This document shows positions 6,344 through 39,913 of a stretch of DNA of 64,000 bases, piece after piece; the first letter of the stretch is position 1; every line of letters starts with the position of its first letter. The position numbers and the translations under genes were made by a program. The notes under the pieces were generated by a model. It did not search any database. It saw only the letters and a list, made by a program, of their open reading frames with translations, and was not told the DNA's origin. The stretch lies in IMG/VR virus record IMGVR_UViG_3300014910_000001; one strand, 5' to 3'. This DNA comes from an uncultured virus (IMG/VR IMGVR_UViG_3300014910_000001) (Duplodnaviria; Heunggongvirae; Uroviricota; Caudoviricetes).

Positions 6344-6862
6344 GTGCTTTTTGATGCGCAATTTTTTACCGGATGCCCCACGTTTGAGCAGTATGCGCGC
6401 CGTAATAAGACGCGAGACAGCTTGGGACGGGGGCTTTCGGTTTTTGCCGACATTGCTATGGACGTCGGCATTTTCAAAGTACCGAAGCAGGAGCTCATGA
6501 CGCGCAGCGGCATGAGCAACCGCCAGCTGAACTATTTCGGCGGCGTGAAGGGGATTAGCTACATCTTGAGAAAATCATTAACAGAAGGACGCGGACGCAT
6601 GACAACGGCACAGATCGAAGGTTTGAGCAAAATTGGAATCGGTGCCATTACGTGCAGCTACGACCAGGCCTTACTGAGAATGAAAGAAGATCCGGAATTG
6701 CTGATGCGTCGGGAAGCGTGGGGGGCGGGTTATTTTGTGTCGCTTGAGCAGGAGCATGAAGGCTGTGACGTGCTGATTCTAACCCGACCGGACGGCGGCG
6801 TGGAAATGCACGACCTGAGCATTAACGATATGCGTGTAACTGACTGGGTGGAAGTCGCCTAA
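6344..6862 (+). CDS. Hypothetical protein with C-terminal DUF2829/Tad2-like domain
   Basis: SYDQALLRMKE..MRREAW...SINDMRVTDW fits the AL..LK.G..R..W...D..A.DW pattern. Confidence 0.5.
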   Translation: MLFDAQFFTGCPTFEQYARRNKTRDSLGRGLSVFADIAMDVGIFKVPKQELMTRSGMSNRQLNYFGGVKGISYILRKSLTEGRGRMTTAQIEGLSKIGIGAITCSYDQALLRMKEDPELLMRREAWGAGYFVSLEQEHEGCDVLILTRPDGGVEMHDLSINDMRVTDWVEVA

Positions 6863-7158: not shown

Positions 7159-7300
7159 TCCTCTGCTGGTGGCAGAATCCGGAACAATGCCACCAGCTAT
7201 CCTTCCTGAATCGTTAAACGAAATCTAAGAAAACTCTTAGACAGTGGTCAATTTCGCGTTATCATCCGCCGCAAATAACACGCGGATCTGATAACACATT

Positions 7301-8590
7301 ATGACTACTCTCGCTCCACTCCAGCAGCTGCAAAATCTCCCTGAATGTAACGTTGATGACGATGTTCTTCATCAGGCCTTTGTCACCGCTTACGGCCAGC
7401 TTAATTCCGTCAGAAAACGCCTGACGCTCGATGACCTGGAGCTACGCCTCCTTGATAACTGCACAAACGCACTGGAGCAGATCCAGATCGATATCGGCAT
7501 GCGCCTCAACCATGAAGCTGATACCTATAACCTGCTGTTAGATACGCTTGAGCAGGCGCAGCAGCAGCTGGGCGCACAGTCCGCACTGGTCAACGAAGTA
7601 ACGAAAATCCGTCTCGATGCAGAGAACGCCATTGAAGAGGCCCGCGAGGCGGCTAAGCTGCGTGAACTCGAGGCGGATAGCCGTGTAATCAACGCAGAGA
7701 ATCAGCTTGAGGGTGTCAGGTCAGCCCTAACCACCGCGCAGCTGGCGTTTACCTCTGTATCACAGGAATTTGACCAGTATCGCCGCAAGAATCCTGAGCG
7801 CCTGGCGCGTGACCTCAATGAGCGTGACAAAACCATTTCGCAGCAGCGCGCCGACCGCAAGAAAGACAGCCTTAAGCGGCAGGAGCTGCAGAGCAAACTC
7901 AACATCGCTGATAAGGTTGTTGGAGAAGAGCGCCGCCAGCGCGCCGCGACGGCCAATGACCTGATGAAGACTACCGCTCTCTATAACCACCTGAAGGAGC
8001 GCGTCGATTTCCACGATGGCCGGGAAGATGTGCAGCAGTTTCTGCTTCAGCTGCCGGACGGCTCCGGCGACGTAGGTTGCTACATCTACAACTTCCACTT
8101 TGGTCTGAGCGTCTTCCACGGTATCCGCGACGTCTCCATTGAAACGGCTGATTTCCATTTCCAAATCCGTACCGCAATGATGCTGGCAATGGACGTTGTG
8201 CCAGGAGTATGGGGCAATCCGGTGTTCCGCTTGCTACCGGACCTTGAACCTATGTGGGATACAGCTGTTAACGACGAGCTGCACGCACGTATCATGAAGC
8301 GTATAGAGCTTGATTATCCGCGCCTCCACCAGCGCATTCTGGATGGTAAATCCGCGCCAGTCTCCGAGCTGGCCATACCGACACGCGCCCTTAACGCTCT
8401 CATTAAGGCCGGATATGAGACGGTTGCCGATGCTGGTGGTGAACTGCCTACAGAGCTGGCGAAGGTGAAGGGGCTGAGCGAGGCATCAGTGATGGAGATC
8501 CGCGCTGCCGTGAACAGTTGGTGCATCAAGTGGGCGAAAGTGAATGGCGACATTGAGAACATCAAGAACCAGAAAGTAAAGCGCCGCTAA
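7301..8590 (+). CDS. Coiled-coil protein with C-terminal RNA polymerase alpha-CTD-like (HhH) domain; possibly PmgS-like
   Basis: Long heptad region; C-terminal SELAIPTRALNALIKAGYETVAD...ELAKVKGLSEASVMEI; operator-like site at 7221-7241. Confidence 0.65.
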   Translation: MTTLAPLQQLQNLPECNVDDDVLHQAFVTAYGQLNSVRKRLTLDDLELRLLDNCTNALEQIQIDIGMRLNHEADTYNLLLDTLEQAQQQLGAQSALVNEVTKIRLDAENAIEEAREAAKLRELEADSRVINAENQLEGVRSALTTAQLAFTSVSQEFDQYRRKNPERLARDLNERDKTISQQRADRKKDSLKRQELQSKLNIADKVVGEERRQRAATANDLMKTTALYNHLKERVDFHDGREDVQQFLLQLPDGSGDVGCYIYNFHFGLSVFHGIRDVSIETADFHFQIRTAMMLAMDVVPGVWGNPVFRLLPDLEPMWDTAVNDELHARIMKRIELDYPRLHQRILDGKSAPVSELAIPTRALNALIKAGYETVADAGGELPTELAKVKGLSEASVMEIRAAVNSWCIKWAKVNGDIENIKNQKVKRR

Positions 8591-8619
8591 CCCTCCATCA
8601 TCTCCTTTGGACTGCTTTG

Positions 8620-8645
8620 AAAATCTAAGAGATTTCTTAGATTTT
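8620..8645. promoter_or_regulatory. Palindromic double C1-operator-like site
   Basis: AAAATCTAAGA-GATT-TCTTAGATTTT perfect inverted repeat; same core as other operator-like sites. Confidence 0.65.
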
Positions 8646-8824
8646 CATTGCTTCATAACTCCGCTTTGTGTACATTTCTCCCCGCTGACAAGGGCTTTAC
8701 TGCTCCGTGCAAAATTCATAATAGGCATTTGGCGGATTAATCATAACTTTCTGTTTAGTCCGCTCTTTTTTCACAAATCAAAATCTATTCCAGAGTAGAT
8801 TTTGCTGTGTGTAGTAACTTTCAT

Positions 8825-8849
8825 GCCCGGTAGTTTCCGGGCTTTTTTT
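8825..8849 (+). terminator. Rho-independent terminator
   Basis: GCCCGG-TAGTTT-CCGGGC followed by T7. Confidence 0.8.
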
Positions 8850-9028
8850 CAGGTTCAGCCGTGAGCGCATTAGGGTGTGCTCACGGCTGAAACGGGGGAA
8901 AACGCTTTAGCACGCGAGGCAAACGCACTGCAAATCTGGCGAGGTTTCCTGACCTCATACGTGACGCAAGCGGACAGGTTGACCAGATACTTAAGTGTCC
9001 GCGCCGGGTATGCACCGGCAAATATTCA

Positions 9029-9101
9029 GCATGGGTAGCGAAGAGGCCGAACGCAGAAGTTGTTAAGCCCGCCGCCGGTTCGAATCCGGCCCCATGCACC
9101 A
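9029..9101 (+). tRNA. tRNA-like element, Asn(GTT)-type loop, anticodon stem unpaired (pseudo-tRNA or mimic)
   Basis: Acceptor GCATGGG/CCCATGC plus ACCA; D arm GCG..CGC; T arm GCCGG-TTCGAAT-CCGGC; loop TTGTTAA flanked by non-complementary AGAAG/GCCCG. Confidence 0.7.
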
Positions 9102-9579
9102 GTTCGTAACGGGCCGCCCCCGGTTATTAGCTTTTTCCGGGTGTGTTATGAGTAGGGTGAACGGCAAGTAGCCCCTCCTGTCATGGCAGTGAACGCGGTT
9201 GATGGACTAATCCCGCGCAAAGAATGCCCCATGAGGCTTAAACATGCTCCCGCCTGATCCTCGTAAGGGATCACTATTTGTGAGCGCGCTGCTGCATCTG
9301 GCGTTTTACCTGGCGTTTGGCGAAAGATTACCTCTGTCAGCGCGCTCACAAATGGGGGAATGCGGCTATGCGCACGCGGGACGGAAAAGTTACCTGACGT
9401 TTTGCAAATTCCTTTACATGACCCGTCCGTAGATTCCGTAACGGACAGCTGGTGGCACCAGCCCCCCATGCACTACACGTCAACACCAGGCGATGCCCTG
9501 TTTACTGGCTAATTTGGCTGGTGGCAGAGCAGGTCAGCGGCAGACCTTAACAGTTCGTGACGGCTGGGAAAGACCAGCC

Positions 9580-9818
9580 CATAACGGCGAGGACACTGAA
9601 AGGTGACTTTAATGAACACCTGGTGCGTGGTTGCTCAGTGTTCTCGACCGTTGTGGTGATCGCTTTAACACACCGTAGGAGTTGTGGATCCGGAATCCAC
9701 GGGGCGAAAGCCTTGCCTGTGAATTAACACGGGCGGTCAGCGATGGGCTGCGAAAGCAAAGCGGGTTTAAGTCCCGCCTCATTGAACAATCGCGCTAACG
9801 GAAAACGATCACTACAAC
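9580..9818 (+). ncRNA. RNase III-like stem followed by ~170-nt structured RNA
   Basis: CATAACGGCGAGGACACTGA pairs with TCAGTGTTCTCGACCGTTGTG; closing helix GTTGTGGTGATCG/CGATCACTACAAC; GAAA tetraloop hairpins; T-loop-like GCGGG-TTTAAGT-CCCGC. Confidence 0.55.
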
Positions 9819-9844
9819 CCCATTCCCCCACGGCAGGATGCGAT

Positions 9845-9973
9845 ATGTCGTTATCAGAGTTTGCTGCAGAGCACCCGTTCCTCACCGTGATTTATGCGCT
9901 GGTGGCCATTTATGCCATCGAGACGTTCATTAAGGCAGTAAGAGGCGGCAGGAAGAAGCAGCGCCGCAAATAG
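9845..9973 (+). CDS. 42-aa membrane peptide with basic tail
   Basis: AGGA RBS; MSLSEFAAEHPFLTVIYALVAIYAIETFIKAVRGGRKKQRRK. Confidence 0.55.
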   Translation: MSLSEFAAEHPFLTVIYALVAIYAIETFIKAVRGGRKKQRRK

Positions 9974-9980
9974 AGCACAC

Positions 9981-10190
9981 CAACAGGAAAGAGCATTGAT
10001 GCTTTGCGCAAAGCGCCATTGGACTAGGAATGGTCAGTGCTCTATCCGTTGTGGTGCATTCGCAGTTGCTGCTGCGATCGCAAGACTGGCCCCCGCTTCT
10101 TCAGTCGCGTACACAGGGGTTAAAGCCGCCAGTAACCAGGTTGACCAGTCACTTGAGAGGTTACTTGCCGGGTATGGCACCGGCCACCAC
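9981..10190 (+). ncRNA. RNase III-like stem followed by tRNA-shaped RNA
   Basis: CAACAGGAAAGAGCATTGA pairs with TCAGTGCTCTATCCGTTG; acceptor-like GTGGTG/CACCAC stacked on hairpin GCCGG-GTATGGCA-CCGGC. Confidence 0.55.
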
Positions 10191-10386
10191 TAACGCTTAA
10201 TACGAGAAATCAGGCATCATCAGGGTAAGACAGTCAGCTAATCCGGACGTAATGCGCATGAGTGACAGCACCTACACAAAGACCATCAGAGCTATGCAGT
10301 TTGCCATGTTTCACTGCCTGCTTAATGCCGGACTGTTTGCCGGTCATAAATGGCTTATCGCGCAGCTGATGACAGCCTGAGACAGG

Positions 10387-10523
10387 ACAACAGGTAAGAG
10401 CGCCTGTAACGTGCTTTTATCGTTGTGTTGTCGCTTAACGGAAGCAACCGCCGTTCCATGTAATAGCCGTTAGGCCTGATGGGGACAGACGGACGGTAGC
10501 CGGTTCGAATCCGGGCAGCACAA
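10387..10523 (+). ncRNA. RNase III-like stem followed by tRNA-like RNA with extended anticodon arm
   Basis: Acceptor TGTGTTG/CAGCACA, D arm GCTT-AACGG-AAGC, T arm CCGG-TTCGAAT-CCGG, ~50-nt arm in anticodon position, no CCA. Confidence 0.6.
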
Positions 10524-10668
10524 TGTCATTACAGCCAACTGGCCACGCGCCGGCGCAGGCGCAGGCTTCAAATTATCGCCGTGCGTGTCCCACGCCGGAC
10601 TTAACCAGGTGAACTTTAATCACCGGCACCTGCCGGGGATTCTGCACGCCTGCAGGAAGAGAAAACGC

Positions 10669-10917
10669 ATGAAAAAGATCGCACTGATGGGCGCATTGAT
10701 GGGAAGTCTCAGCTGAGTAGCCCGCCGTCCGCCAACCGTTCCCGTGCCGCAGGTAAGAACATTGCTGGTGGGCGATACCCGGCCACCGGCGCAGGAAGAG
10801 ATCGAACAGGGAATACGTCGTTTGGCCACAAGCATTGCAAAAGCACAGCAGCACTGGGCCGCAGAGAAGAAACGCAGATATACAGCGCAGAAGCGCAAAC
10901 AGAAACGAGGCTACTGA
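10669..10917 (+). pseudogene. Small basic protein gene with in-frame TGA at 10714-10716
   Basis: RBS AGGAAGAG, MKKIALMGALMGSLS*VARRPP...AQKRKQKRGY; frame continues to abut the next gene. Confidence 0.5.
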
Positions 10918-10919
10918 TA

Positions 10920-11504
10920 ATGATGACCGCTCAACAATTAAATGCCACGATCGCTATGTTCGCAGACGCCGAAGCTGACTACGCAGGCGACTATATGGCA
11001 CTTCTGGCGGTTATTGCACGTCTTGGATACACCATTACAGAGACGTCCGAGACCAAAAACACCGGATATGCCGCCGTTATCAGTAAAAGCGGCCTGACAA
11101 TGACCGGTTATGGCGAAACCCTGAACCACGCCGCCTGTGTCGCGCTGATTAAGTTGAACGGTCTGATCCTGCAAAATGAAGCGATGATTGAGAAGGGCGA
11201 ACTGAATTTCAGGCAGGAGCATGCACCGCTGGCCGTGGCACAACTATGGCTATCTGAAGGCTGTAAGGTGGCACGGGAAACATGGGGGAAGGGAGTTTAT
11301 CTCCGACTCAACAGAGGCATGATGCGCGCCGCGCTGATGGGAACAGACATGTACGGCGTACCGGCACGTTACTTTGACTGCAATCCGGAGGCTACTGTCA
11401 CGCAGATGCCTCAGCTTCTGCTCGTTGACGCAGAACAGCTGACTGTCTCTGACTGGGCGCCTGCTTCTACCGATATTCTCGCAAGCGACTGGAAGTTGGT
11501 GTAA
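10920..11504 (+). CDS. Phage ABA-sandwich-like domain fused to DUF2829/Tad2-like domain
   Basis: N-term DYAGDYMALLAVIARLG...GETLNHAACVALI; C-term EGCKVARETWGKG...WAPASTDILASDW. Confidence 0.7.
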   Translation: MMTAQQLNATIAMFADAEADYAGDYMALLAVIARLGYTITETSETKNTGYAAVISKSGLTMTGYGETLNHAACVALIKLNGLILQNEAMIEKGELNFRQEHAPLAVAQLWLSEGCKVARETWGKGVYLRLNRGMMRAALMGTDMYGVPARYFDCNPEATVTQMPQLLLVDAEQLTVSDWAPASTDILASDWKLV

Positions 11505-11912: not shown

Positions 11913-12320
11913 ATGGACCAAAAGGTGAGCAGTATAGAGGTAGCCGATCTGTTAATACGCAGACGGGACTACATGACAGTGGCCGAAGTCACTAAGCTGG
12001 TGGAAACTGAATACCCGCACTTAGTGGTGAATACCGGCATTATCTCCAATATCCTGCGCTCCTTTGTTCGTTCGCCGTTCGCACAATGCCGGGTACATCC
12101 CGACGCCTATCCCCGCCAGTATCGGCTGGAGGCCATGAACGGCTATATCTTCAAGGTGCGCGGAAGAAAGGATCTCAATTACGGTTCGCTGTGTGTGGAA
12201 AGCGCCACGAAGCAGGTTCTACAGAAAAAGGAAATGGAGCAAATGTCGGTGTGCGCAATGGCAAGGGAACTGATGGATATGTGCAGAAGGGGGAGAATAG
12301 AGAATGCCCCGCTCATGTGA
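11913..12320 (+). CDS. lpa: Late promoter activator
   Basis: SSIEVADLLIR...EYPHL..PRQYRL..MARELM resembles P1 Lpa; operator-like CCTTAGAATTGC at 11874-11885; near pacA. Confidence 0.8.
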   Translation: MDQKVSSIEVADLLIRRRDYMTVAEVTKLVETEYPHLVVNTGIISNILRSFVRSPFAQCRVHPDAYPRQYRLEAMNGYIFKVRGRKDLNYGSLCVESATKQVLQKKEMEQMSVCAMARELMDMCRRGRIENAPLM

Positions 12321-39130: not shown

Positions 39131-39913
39131 TTACCGGGTACCGCTAATTTGAATTCGATGCTCACCCTGCATAAAAATTTCATATTCAGTGTGATTTGGA
39201 ATTCGCGCCAAAATTTGTGTCAGTAACTCGCCAATTTGTCCTCGTTTCGCATCTGGGTTTGCATCATAACGATCTGACACACCATTAACGCGACCGTCAA
39301 AGTTCCAATTACCAGCTGGATCAACTTTAAGTGTTCCAGACAAAGTCAAACTTACCCGACCCAAATAAGACCACGCCCAGCGATCGCTATTGGCAAAGTC
39401 ATAACCGATGCTTTGATTAATATTAAATTCGCCAGTGTGAACGCCGCTCAAAATATTATTTATTGGAGGTAAATTATTACGATCAAAGTTAAAACTCAAC
39501 TGACCGAGATCGACAGCCATAGCTGAGCCGTCTCCAAAAGCATAGTGATAAAGCGCGGCTAGCGGCGCAAAAGCTTTGTCTGTCAACATGTTTTGGCTAG
39601 ATGGTGGCCAGTCAGCAGGCGCATTTTTGATTGAGCCATAGTAGCCAACACCTCCATGGGCTTCCTGATAGTCGGCGTAAGCAGCGCGGCATAGTAAAGC
39701 CTTAACTACGTTCATATCTTTATCGAGATAGTTCAGGCAGTCTTGCAGCCATTTAGCCGTAGCTGTACCGTCATAATATGCACGAATTAAATCAGTACGC
39801 GCTTTTGGATCTCCAGCAGGTAATGAATTAGGATCTTGCACAGCATTAAAGTTATACGATGGACCCCAGTTCGGAGCGGAAGCAGTAACATCCAATTGCG
39901 GTTGTTCAGCCAT
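39131..39913 (-). CDS. cma: Colicin M-like lipid II-degrading bacteriocin
   Basis: TonB-box-like LDVTA; YLGRVSLTLSGTL..W.F.G.V...DRYDANP..RG.IGE.LT catalytic motif. Confidence 0.9.
   Translation of the reverse strand: MAEQPQLDVTASAPNWGPSYNFNAVQDPNSLPAGDPKARTDLIRAYYDGTATAKWLQDCLNYLDKDMNVVKALLCRAAYADYQEAHGGVGYYGSIKNAPADWPPSSQNMLTDKAFAPLAALYHYAFGDGSAMAVDLGQLSFNFDRNNLPPINNILSGVHTGEFNINQSIGYDFANSDRWAWSYLGRVSLTLSGTLKVDPAGNWNFDGRVNGVSDRYDANPDAKRGQIGELLTQILARIPNHTEYEIFMQGEHRIQISGTR

Follow-up and report, generated by a model that had tools for sequence, protein, structure and literature searches.

Why should a phage-plasmid carry tRNA-shaped genes that no longer decode, set in a run of other folded RNAs? 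The locus that raises this question lies in a 64,000-nucleotide (nt) sequence of an uncultured virus of the Caudoviricetes (IMG/VR record IMGVR_UViG_3300014910_000001), referred to at its full length as the window, in which an island of ~1.9 kb is a chain of conserved folded RNAs in a Pantoea phage-plasmid of the P1/D6 type. With a probability of about 0.6, we read this region as the Pantoea version of the RNA leader/tRNA region of P1 and D6, a repressor-controlled RNA operon that would be processed into stable small RNAs (sRNAs) and in which the tRNA shapes would serve as processing or stability modules. The argument goes from the anatomy, homology, conservation and covariation observed in the island to a conditional account of its control, processing and functions. 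The layout appears to be known but uncharacterised, the non-decoding tRNA shapes being the new part, and processing into small RNAs seems the most likely mechanism.

To our knowledge, no function is known for the RNA modules that precede the tRNAs and ban in P1, though P1 is a textbook phage, and the P1 record covers them only by a 'dicF-like region' annotation and two open reading frames (ORFs) on the opposite strand. At the present locus such modules are conserved, covarying, exchangeable and common to lambdoid prophages, and one lineage has kept the tRNA shapes and discarded decoding. Should the units be processed sRNAs, phage-plasmids would regulate their host through a sizeable layer that is as yet unexplored; should the tRNA shapes be mimics, they would represent a new kind of phage counter-measure.

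A chain of folded RNAs on one strand

Comparisons were made across 39 loci, consisting of 21 viral contigs and 3 genome contigs retrieved with a pmgS-like protein query (5-kb flanks each) together with plasmid, Escherichia coli and phage records; among them are L034 (Enterobacter sp.), L035 (E. coli plasmid), L036 (E. coli lambdoid prophage), L030 (viral contig), L038 (D6) and L039 (P1). The island with its flanks (8600-10700) shares 80-96% identity with six non-mobilizable plasmids of ~87-96 kb (five from Pantoea and one labelled Acinetobacter), and a more sensitive search added four Leclercia and Enterobacter plasmids sharing only a piece of ~130 nt, the unit cons130. A DNA search of the phage collection returned no match for the island, and the search of that collection with the D6 region was dominated by tRNA matches. 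When 17 pieces of the window were compared by BLAST with 34 loci, most were 85-100% identical within the Pantoea group, and in L034, where the pmgS-like protein is 72% identical, the DNA of rnaB and cons130 is still 92% identical.

The initial annotation, made from the sequence, had described an array of tRNA-shaped RNAs, several of them behind a repeated processing stem, in a stretch almost free of ORFs. The array is real, conserved and encoded on a single strand (+), and it is larger than first described: a hairpin with a terminator (8772-8850), pre1 before tl1, cons130 after tl1 and rna0 after stem0 are added to the first list, and the long hairpins number five rather than three, the missed pair being at 8851-8895 and 9274-9355. 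The near absence of ORFs did not hold, given that two small ORFs are annotated in relatives. The features are as follows, with folding z scores where these were calculated.

8618-8647, no strand: operator-like palindrome with a CTAAG-N6-CTTAG core, heading the island; resembles Obanab of P1, putative function
8772-8850, +: hairpin (inverted repeat I10, 8772-8811), RprA-like single-stranded stretch and intrinsic terminator (8825-8842 plus T run), the first sRNA-like module
8853-8893, +: first stem of the array, 16 predicted pairs with a G.U position, -31.3 kcal/mol, z -7.58
8901-9028, +: pre1, a hairpin with a conserved loop (8970-9002; loop as in the 'dicF-like region' of P1), then a hairpin at 9003-9019, z -1.23
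9029-9101, +: tl1, acceptor, D and T arms with an encoded ACCA end; a 19-nt unstructured linker replaces the anticodon and variable region
9105-9275, +: cons130 (core 9140-9275), the most widely conserved unit, ending in a GUAA-loop hairpin, z -0.92
9276-9353, +: stem0, a 16-bp perfect stem with a variable interior (inverted repeat I9), z -5.16
9349-9475, +: rna0, STnc100-like sRNA scaffold, a 7-bp closing helix stacked on a 5-bp 3' hairpin, with a variable middle, z -1.80
9562-9579, +: small hairpin with a purine-rich loop (GGGAAAGACC core), read from the sequence; motif repeated many times in the L036 leader
9580-9657, +: stem1, -39.7 kcal/mol, z -6.75 (9579-9658)
9650-9818, +: rnaA, 169 nt, 13-bp closing helix, two GAAA tetraloops and a T-loop-like hairpin, -67 kcal/mol, z -4.64
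9845-9973, +: orf1, small hydrophobic protein of 42 amino acids, hypothetical in the annotation of relatives
9975-10057, +: stem2, conserved basal stem with an exchangeable interior, -36.9 kcal/mol, z -4.63 (9975-10058)
10051-10190, +: rnaB, 140 nt, GUGGUG/CACCAC closing helix beside a 5-bp hairpin, dicF-like-region hairpin at 10132-10164, z -1.06
10258-10380, +: orf2, 40 amino acids, hypothetical in the annotation of relatives
10387-10427, +: stem3, short form, -18.2 kcal/mol, z -3.39 (10385-10429)
10424-10523, +: tl3, 7-bp acceptor, D and T arms, no CCA, z -1.76; a ~45-nt three-helix arm replaces the anticodon arm

The three stems already recognised (9580-9655, 9981-10053 and 10387-10427) fold as had been described and far exceed the stability of shuffled sequence (200 shuffles each), and the z scores of all five long hairpins range from -3.4 to -7.6. 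The stems behave as RNA features. In 10 distinct copies of stem1 (alignment A5), its 25 pairs are 99.2% paired, with three pairs changed on both sides and many switches among G.U, A-U and G-C, and a covariation score as high was reached in 0 of 500 shuffles. Stem0 (A6) is 99.4% paired and nearly invariant, with one compensatory pair, and the G.U position in the first stem makes an RNA hairpin likelier there than a DNA operator. Among relatives, four unrelated interiors are carried on the one conserved base of stem2, and stem3 is kept in 11 of 12 distinct upstream flanks, stem1 being joined at that point in the twelfth (L018). It had also been claimed that the 3' GTTGTG of the stems doubles as the 5' strand of the closing helices of the RNAs at 9650-9818, 10051-10190 and 10424-10523, and the folds bear this out for GTTGTG(G); in every case the 3' end of a stem (GTTGTG, or ATGGGGG in stem0) also supplies the 5' strand of the helix that closes the unit after it. 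Because this strand is common to both, the two pairings compete.

The order of modules is not fixed. L018 carries a natural deletion (7265-7440) in which stem1 is fused to tl3 and rnaA, orf1, stem2, rnaB, orf2 and stem3 are gone; since the joint lies in the common CCGTTGTG, the repeats function as joints in recombination as well. Accessory cassettes are placed directly after the 3' ends of units, including genes for TerB/TciA and a DUF3927 protein after rnaA (L001 and L004), a 390-nt ORF after rnaB (L004) and an SPFH protein cassette (L002 and L006). The two small ORFs gave no Pfam match, and homologues of orf1 can be read by eye in the Enterobacter and Leclercia plasmids L008 and L009. Just beyond the island, at 10669-10716, an ORF of 83 amino acids in relatives (e.g. 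L002 7105-7356) ends after 15 codons in the window and is apparently disrupted.

Except for rnaA, the non-stem units listed with a z score have weak ones, and support for them was therefore drawn from conservation and covariation. For rna0, an alignment of nine copies from five lineages (A4) predicts 22 pairs, and compensatory changes are seen in 11 of these. Within the closing helix, the fold has a 5' hairpin, a hypervariable middle enclosed by a long-range helix, another hairpin, and an AGGCA-loop 3' hairpin that abuts the closing helix. R1, a covariance model built from A4 in which the window copy is a training row (119.9 bits), also finds copies outside its training set, namely in P1 (91.5 bits, directly before tciA), L030 (74.3 bits) and D6 (64.5 bits). 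The same elements (closing helix, 5' hairpin, variable middle and AGGCA-loop 3' hairpin beside the closing helix) are found in STnc100/PasD sRNAs, as seen in the alignment of L009 and in A4, and Rfam STnc100 (RF02076) scores 36.4, 38.7 and 39.6 bits on the Leclercia, E. coli and D6 copies; no rna0 copy reaches the gathering score of 47. An STnc100 search of genomes G001 and G002 found nothing, but did not return the control loci either. According to a 2026 bioRxiv preprint, STnc100 and PasD are prophage sRNAs of common origin with different seeds (10.64898/2026.05.13.724894), which fits the conserved scaffold around a variable middle seen in rna0.

The remaining units differ in how widely they occur. 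rnaA is 85-99% conserved in 14 distinct copies, with two compensatory pairs in one helix (RNAalifold), and had no Rfam match. rnaB is almost invariant (92-100% in 11 distinct copies), and a homologue is readable in D6 (L038 ~7588-7730). A 'dicF-like' hairpin, with a conserved loop of ~19 nt and covarying stems, can be read by eye in pre1, rnaB (10132-10164), L002, L008 and P1. Plasmids of Leclercia, Enterobacter and E. coli, the viral contig L030 and the chromosomal prophage L036 all carry cons130 at 77-85% identity; RNAalifold predicts 28 pairs for it, five with compensatory changes, and it too had no Rfam match. In L036 it lies in a 0.9-kb gap after a cI-like gene; behind it come a stem from this family, a GUGGUG...CAC unit and a terminator-bearing RprA-like tail. 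This recurrence of cons130, stem and unit indicates that modules circulate between P1-type plasmids and lambdoid prophages. From its place in a prophage PL-type leader, cons130 was considered as a possible put-like antitermination RNA. In L036 3700-4640, small hairpins with a GGAAAGACC core follow the RprA-like terminator, in a layout that recalls nut/put-type leaders, and one such hairpin stands in the window at 9562-9579.

A single family comprising all units was considered and rejected, given that R1 fails to detect rnaA, rnaB, pre1 and cons130; that rnaA, rnaB and pre1 escape the model points to several families of common design. Rfam, which the initial annotation had named as a check, recognises tl1 as a tRNA in E-value mode over 8000-11500 and gives 0 matches across the window in gathering mode; besides tl1, the E-value search of 8000-11500 returned chance-level matches only, with no C4, DicF, RprA, STnc100, Y RNA, GOLLD or ROOL.

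tRNA shapes without a decoding arm

The notion of an array of tRNA mimics stands in so far as two units, tl1 and tl3, are tRNA-shaped, and fails for several others, rna0 being a relative of the STnc100/PasD type and further units belonging to no Rfam family. As had been proposed, both lack a decoding anticodon arm; among the derivatives this arm is deleted or replaced.

The tRNA-like character proposed for 9029-9101 is supported by an ARAGORN call and by a score of 40.3 bits on Rfam tRNA (RF00005), obtained in E-value mode and missed in gathering mode (gathering score 29). ARAGORN reports tl1 as 'Phe gaa at position 28', an impossible anticodon position, and in the alignment to the Rfam model 12 nt without any stem occupy the place of the 17-nt anticodon arm. 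What is left is intact, with a 7-bp acceptor and a 5-bp T stem bearing a 7-nt T loop, in which all pairs form. In alignment A2, 98.2% of the cells are paired and two T-stem pairs have changed on both sides. A second allele, tl1-B (61 nt plus CCA), occupies the same site in L002, L003 and others; the encoded ACCA end is kept in both alleles, and variants of tl1-B show a compensatory difference at 6:67. The conservation of tl1 is no better than that of its flanks.

At 10424-10523, tl3 has a 7-bp acceptor and a T arm, with 7 of 7 and 4 of 5 pairs formed, respectively, in the window copy. This copy gave no Rfam tRNA match at E<=10; its homologue in L002 reaches 45.9 bits, the anticodon arm there holding an insert of 35 nt. 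Over 16 distinct copies (A1), tl3 is 96.4% paired, and the extended arm is 98.9% paired (100% in two helices and 95.8% in the terminal hairpin), with five pairs changed on both sides. The covariation score of tl3 was reached in 0 of 500 shuffles. Our reading is that the upper half of the tRNA shape is under real but uneven constraint.

Since tRNAs, canonical ones among them, are found in the same region of P1, D6 and the E. coli, Leclercia and Enterobacter plasmids, the tRNA-shaped units are tRNA derivatives. The window tl1 (allele A) is identical at 64 of 73 positions to an 86-nt 'tRNA-Arg' of the E. coli plasmid L035, tl1-B of L003 at 52 of 64 to trnT of P1/D6, with ~4 nt in place of the 17-nt anticodon arm, and tl3-B of L002 at 57 of 71 to the tRNA-Met(CAT) of L008, with a 30-nt insert. 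A further tRNA-shaped unit, not present in the window, occurs in L002 (4991-5074) and L027 (7512-7595), with 84 nt, and in L034 (7458-7539), with 82 nt; a covarying stem of 4 bp closes the 17-nt loop that holds its 'anticodon', and the L002 copy matches trnA at 57 of 76 positions. In two lineages ARAGORN reads this extra unit as a suppressor (UUA), in the third as Gln (UUG). Because tRNAs resemble each other, ancestry based on best matches is tentative, and on this basis four tRNA lineages (best matches Thr, CAT, Asn and the odd 'Arg') may have lost decoding and kept the upper half.

The E. coli, Leclercia and Enterobacter relatives carry a canonical CAT tRNA, and those of E. coli and Leclercia also carry the odd 86-nt gene, which is a tRNA-Arg according to PGAP (E. 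coli record) and Val(AAC) according to ARAGORN. ARAGORN detected no canonical tRNA in the window, and in G002, a 97%-complete relative of 90 kb, the tl1 copy is the sole tRNA-family match, with no canonical tRNA. The distinctive trait of this lineage is that all of the family's tRNAs are now non-decoding tRNA shapes.

Kinship with P1 and D6, proposed mode of action and competing explanations

The P1 record (NC_005856, ~68.65-71.3 kb) annotates Obanab, P1ban/P2ban, the dicF-like region, trnA (Asn), trnT (Thr), tciABC, trnI (CAT) and ban. The window shares with this leader the operator-like palindrome at the head, the dicF-like-region loop hairpin, the stem-plus-closing-helix modules and the R1 unit. 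With D6 it shares the synteny of a pmgS-like gene, RNA region, lpa and pacA, and the tciA/tciB cassettes of P1 and D6 sit at the same place in the close relatives L001 and L004. Between pmgS and lpa, D6 has tRNA-Asn, Thr, Ser(UGA) and Met(CAT) (ARAGORN) and tciA/tciB, interleaved with stem-plus-unit modules. In contrast to the canonical tRNA-Asn, Thr and Ile/Met(CAT) of P1 and D6 (D6 also having Ser), only non-decoding derivatives are found in the window. Other differences from P1 are that ban, encoding a DnaB-like helicase, lies downstream there, whereas the window has a Tad2-like-domain protein and lpa, as does D6; that cons130 was not found in P1 (no phage match); and that the operator half-site differs in sequence. 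In the accessible part of the literature on this region, it is treated only as 'the tRNAs region' with tciA/tciB morons (PMC6799933), and the P1 modules themselves appear to be uncharacterised.

Some details of these two records may be useful to others. Three of the D6 tRNAs are placed by the record's table on the strand opposite to that given by ARAGORN, and the 87-nt tRNA-Ser(UGA) of D6 (L038 7735-7822) scores 43.1 bits on Rfam tRNA-Sec (gathering score 47), a match kept within the clan. In P1, the predicted genes plp and upl are annotated opposite a run of stem-plus-unit modules (L039 14473-15042), with the R1 match (L039 15077-15206) directly after upl; these ORF calls may deserve re-examination.

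An operator had been placed at the head of the array. An operator-like palindrome is indeed present at 8618-8647, whereas the palindrome at 8853-8893 looks like an RNA hairpin. The CTAAG-N6-CTTAG core has two exact matches in the 64 kb (7225-7240 and 8625-8640) against 0.22 expected, a count reached in 2 of 100 shuffles, and the second copy lies 60 bp upstream of the pmgS-like ORF. The 16-nt half-site was found at 8620-8645 only, and a looser operator pattern gave 10 matches against 3.65 expected, mostly single, weak sites. In P1, the divalent C1 operator Obanab is a palindrome of like form (CTAAT-N6-ATTAG) that overlaps the ban promoters and heads the homologous leader. Given this likeness in form and position, it is reasonable to suppose that the island is under control of the plasmid's C1-type repressor, probably acting through the 8618-8647 palindrome and keeping the operon off in the lysogen.

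In the mechanism that we favour, a plus-strand RNA operon, probably silent in the lysogen, would be transcribed as a chain of exchangeable modules, each consisting of a long hairpin and then a compact RNA whose ends pair in a closing helix. Each hairpin would form first, holding the 5' strand of the next closing helix, and cuts by RNase III, RNase P or RNase E would then free the units as stable small RNAs. In geometry, the units are consistent with substrates of RNase III and RNase P (stems of ~20 bp or more; a stack of 12 pairs in rna0, seven closing and five from the hairpin). Among the products, rna0, the 'dicF-like' loop hairpins and the RprA-like tail could act as base-pairing regulators via conserved or variable single-stranded parts. 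The tRNA-shaped units would have arisen from the family's tRNA genes, with the upper half (acceptor, T and D arms) kept as a handle for end processing and stability, and in tl3 this half might form a natural tRNA scaffold bearing a new structured arm.

Other phage RNAs offer parallels in their maturation: the C4 RNA of P1 is matured by RNase P, DicF is released from the dicBF transcript by RNase III/E, T7 has intergenic RNase III hairpins and T4 has stable RNAs within its tRNA cluster. The logic proposed here is alike, a phage transcript being cut at hairpins or tRNA-like folds into stable small RNAs, with the difference that there is no sequence relation and that Rfam finds no C4 or DicF in the window.

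RprA-like tails, made up of a conserved UGCUGUGUGUAGU stretch and a terminator, are found on phage RNA modules in the window (8795-8850), L008 (4394-4496) and L036 (4218-4318). Rfam RprA (RF00034, gathering score 70) scores 63.4 bits on the related modules of L008/L010 and 48.3 bits on that of L036, and gave no match on the window copy at 8795-8850. Judging from this resemblance, such tails may be phage mimics of the host sRNA that activates rpoS.

Several observations weigh against the reading of the island as a repressor-controlled operon of processed, functional RNAs. The case for the operator consists of resemblance and two palindrome copies, no sigma-70 promoter passed a scan of 8400-11000, and a strong terminator (8825-8850) stands between the palindrome and most of the array, so that read-through must be assumed; the P1 leader likewise has an early terminator. 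Counts of pairs changed on both sides as high as those observed were reached in 25 of 500 shuffles for stem1, 32 of 500 for tl1 and 49 of 500 for tl3; stem0 is without statistical support (184 of 500 shuffles do as well), rnaB has no compensatory pair, and the window rna0 gave no Rfam STnc100 match at E<=10. Ancestry is ambiguous for tl1-B of L002 (49/61 to Met vs 48/64 to Thr), for the window tl3 and for tl3-B of L034, in all of which the top two candidates are a few matches apart. RNA runs contained whole-plasmid contigs or no reads, and no transcript, end or cleavage was seen in them: X5 and X8 each yielded a single contig of 98 kb, evenly covered and from a related plasmid, with no bearing on transcription, X1 gave four low-depth contigs, one of which (173 nt over 9634-9806) is too weak to count, and X21 had no reads. 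Finally, tl1 is mismatched in the acceptor, D and T stems of L034 and in the T stem of L015, L022 and L031 each (L015 being aligned in A3, outside the counted A2), and 9 of the 16 tl3 copies leave the end pair of the T stem (49:65) open; relaxed constraint would be expected to give both.

These last points bring up an explanation that we consider unlikely, namely that the tRNA-shaped units are pseudogenes decaying since the Pantoea lineage ceased to need phage tRNAs, the other modules alone being functional. Intact tRNAs at these positions in relatives had been named beforehand as a sign of simple decay, and P1, D6, E. coli, Leclercia and Enterobacter do carry tRNAs there, some of them canonical; the mismatches in tl1, the open 49:65 pair, the ordinary conservation of tl1 and the window tl3 that no longer scores as a tRNA all agree with it. 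Nevertheless, simple decay fits poorly with the compensatory upkeep of the remaining arms, in the form of double changes at two pairs of the tl1 T stem and at 6:67 in tl1-B, and with a loss restricted to the anticodon arm in each of four lineages. Moreover, two unrelated anticodon-less alleles occupy one site, and the replacement arm of tl3 is a covarying three-helix structure, which decay does not build.

A decoy role for the tRNA shapes is also conceivable. They would then be tRNA mimics, acting as decoys or competitive inhibitors of factors that recognise the acceptor, T or D part, such as tRNA-targeting defence nucleases, 3'-end-modifying toxins, synthetases or modification enzymes, of the host or of a rival phage. 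Four lineages that lost decoding yet kept the upper half, and the ACCA end encoded by both tl1 alleles, would suit such a role, as would the Tad2-like proteins on the flanks and a DarB-like SNF2 protein nearby, which mark an accessory, counter-defence neighbourhood. Three reports describe decoding phage tRNAs that counter tRNA-cleaving defences, e.g. T5 tRNAs against PARIS and retron effectors, and anticodon-loop variants (PMC10264068, PMC11464382, PMC11555353). Those tRNAs resemble the island units in being encoded in phage accessory regions and in their proposed part in conflict with host defence, but they decode and replace cleaved host tRNAs, and they retain a working anticodon loop, where cleavage takes place; tl1, which lacks such a loop, cannot replace a cleaved tRNA. 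As several copies also show decay, nothing points specifically to decoys, no partner or target has been identified, and our literature search brought up no description of phage tRNA-like RNAs or decoys that lack an anticodon, we regard this role as distinctly improbable.

Recombination offers another account, in which the stems are DNA sites (integron attC-like or other site-specific joints) that shuffle cassettes, the RNA folds being incidental. Cassettes do differ among relatives at module borders, the L018 deletion joins stem1 to tl3 at a shared motif, and the stems are imperfect palindromes with AAC...GTT at the base. We find this account very hard to credit, since the pairing of stem1 is kept through G.U-mediated and compensatory changes, insertions follow unit 3' ends rather than the stem base, short homology explains the L018 joint, and the attC core consensus does not appear to be matched at the ends of the stems. 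There is no integron integrase nearby, the sole Phage_integrase-family ORF (among the 56 of 80 ORFs scanned) lying 8 kb away by the pac genes. An integron-like reading of the stems was rejected on the strength of the retained RNA pairing, the position of the insertions and the lack of an adjacent integrase.

Going beyond the processed RNA operon, one may speculate that in the Pantoea/Enterobacter branch of the P1-D6 family selection converted all phage tRNA genes to tRNA-shaped RNAs that do not decode and whose upper half is a functional platform, an idea that we put forward with little confidence. No more confidently, this platform would exist as a pair of alternative alleles without anticodon at a single site, as a unit whose loop has 17 nt and as another bearing a new three-helix arm that covaries. 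Its role could be that of a mimic, titrating or blocking some host or defence factor that recognises tRNAs, or that of a natural tRNA scaffold for a new RNA domain.

Flanking genes

The scan for Pfam domains covered 56 of 80 script-picked ORFs in the window and found Lpa, ParM, a Cre-like integrase, Ref, a Dmt-like double methylase, UmuDC-like proteins and a Rep3 initiator, which together are the gene content of a P1-type phage-plasmid. The island lies between the pmgS-like gene and lpa (11913-12317). Directly upstream, a 429-amino-acid ORF (7301-8587) has an RNA-polymerase alpha-CTD-like domain and is 26.6% identical over 68% of its length to the 'PmgS-like head morphogenesis' gene of D6. Downstream of the island and before lpa, a Tad2-like-domain protein is encoded at 10920-11501. 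Proteins with this domain (Thoeris anti-defence 2) occur on both flanks (6344-6859, E 1.4e-5; 10920-11501, E 6.3e-11). At some distance, an ORF on the minus strand (39134-39913) carries a Colicin M-like C-terminal domain (Pfam E 4.3e-25).

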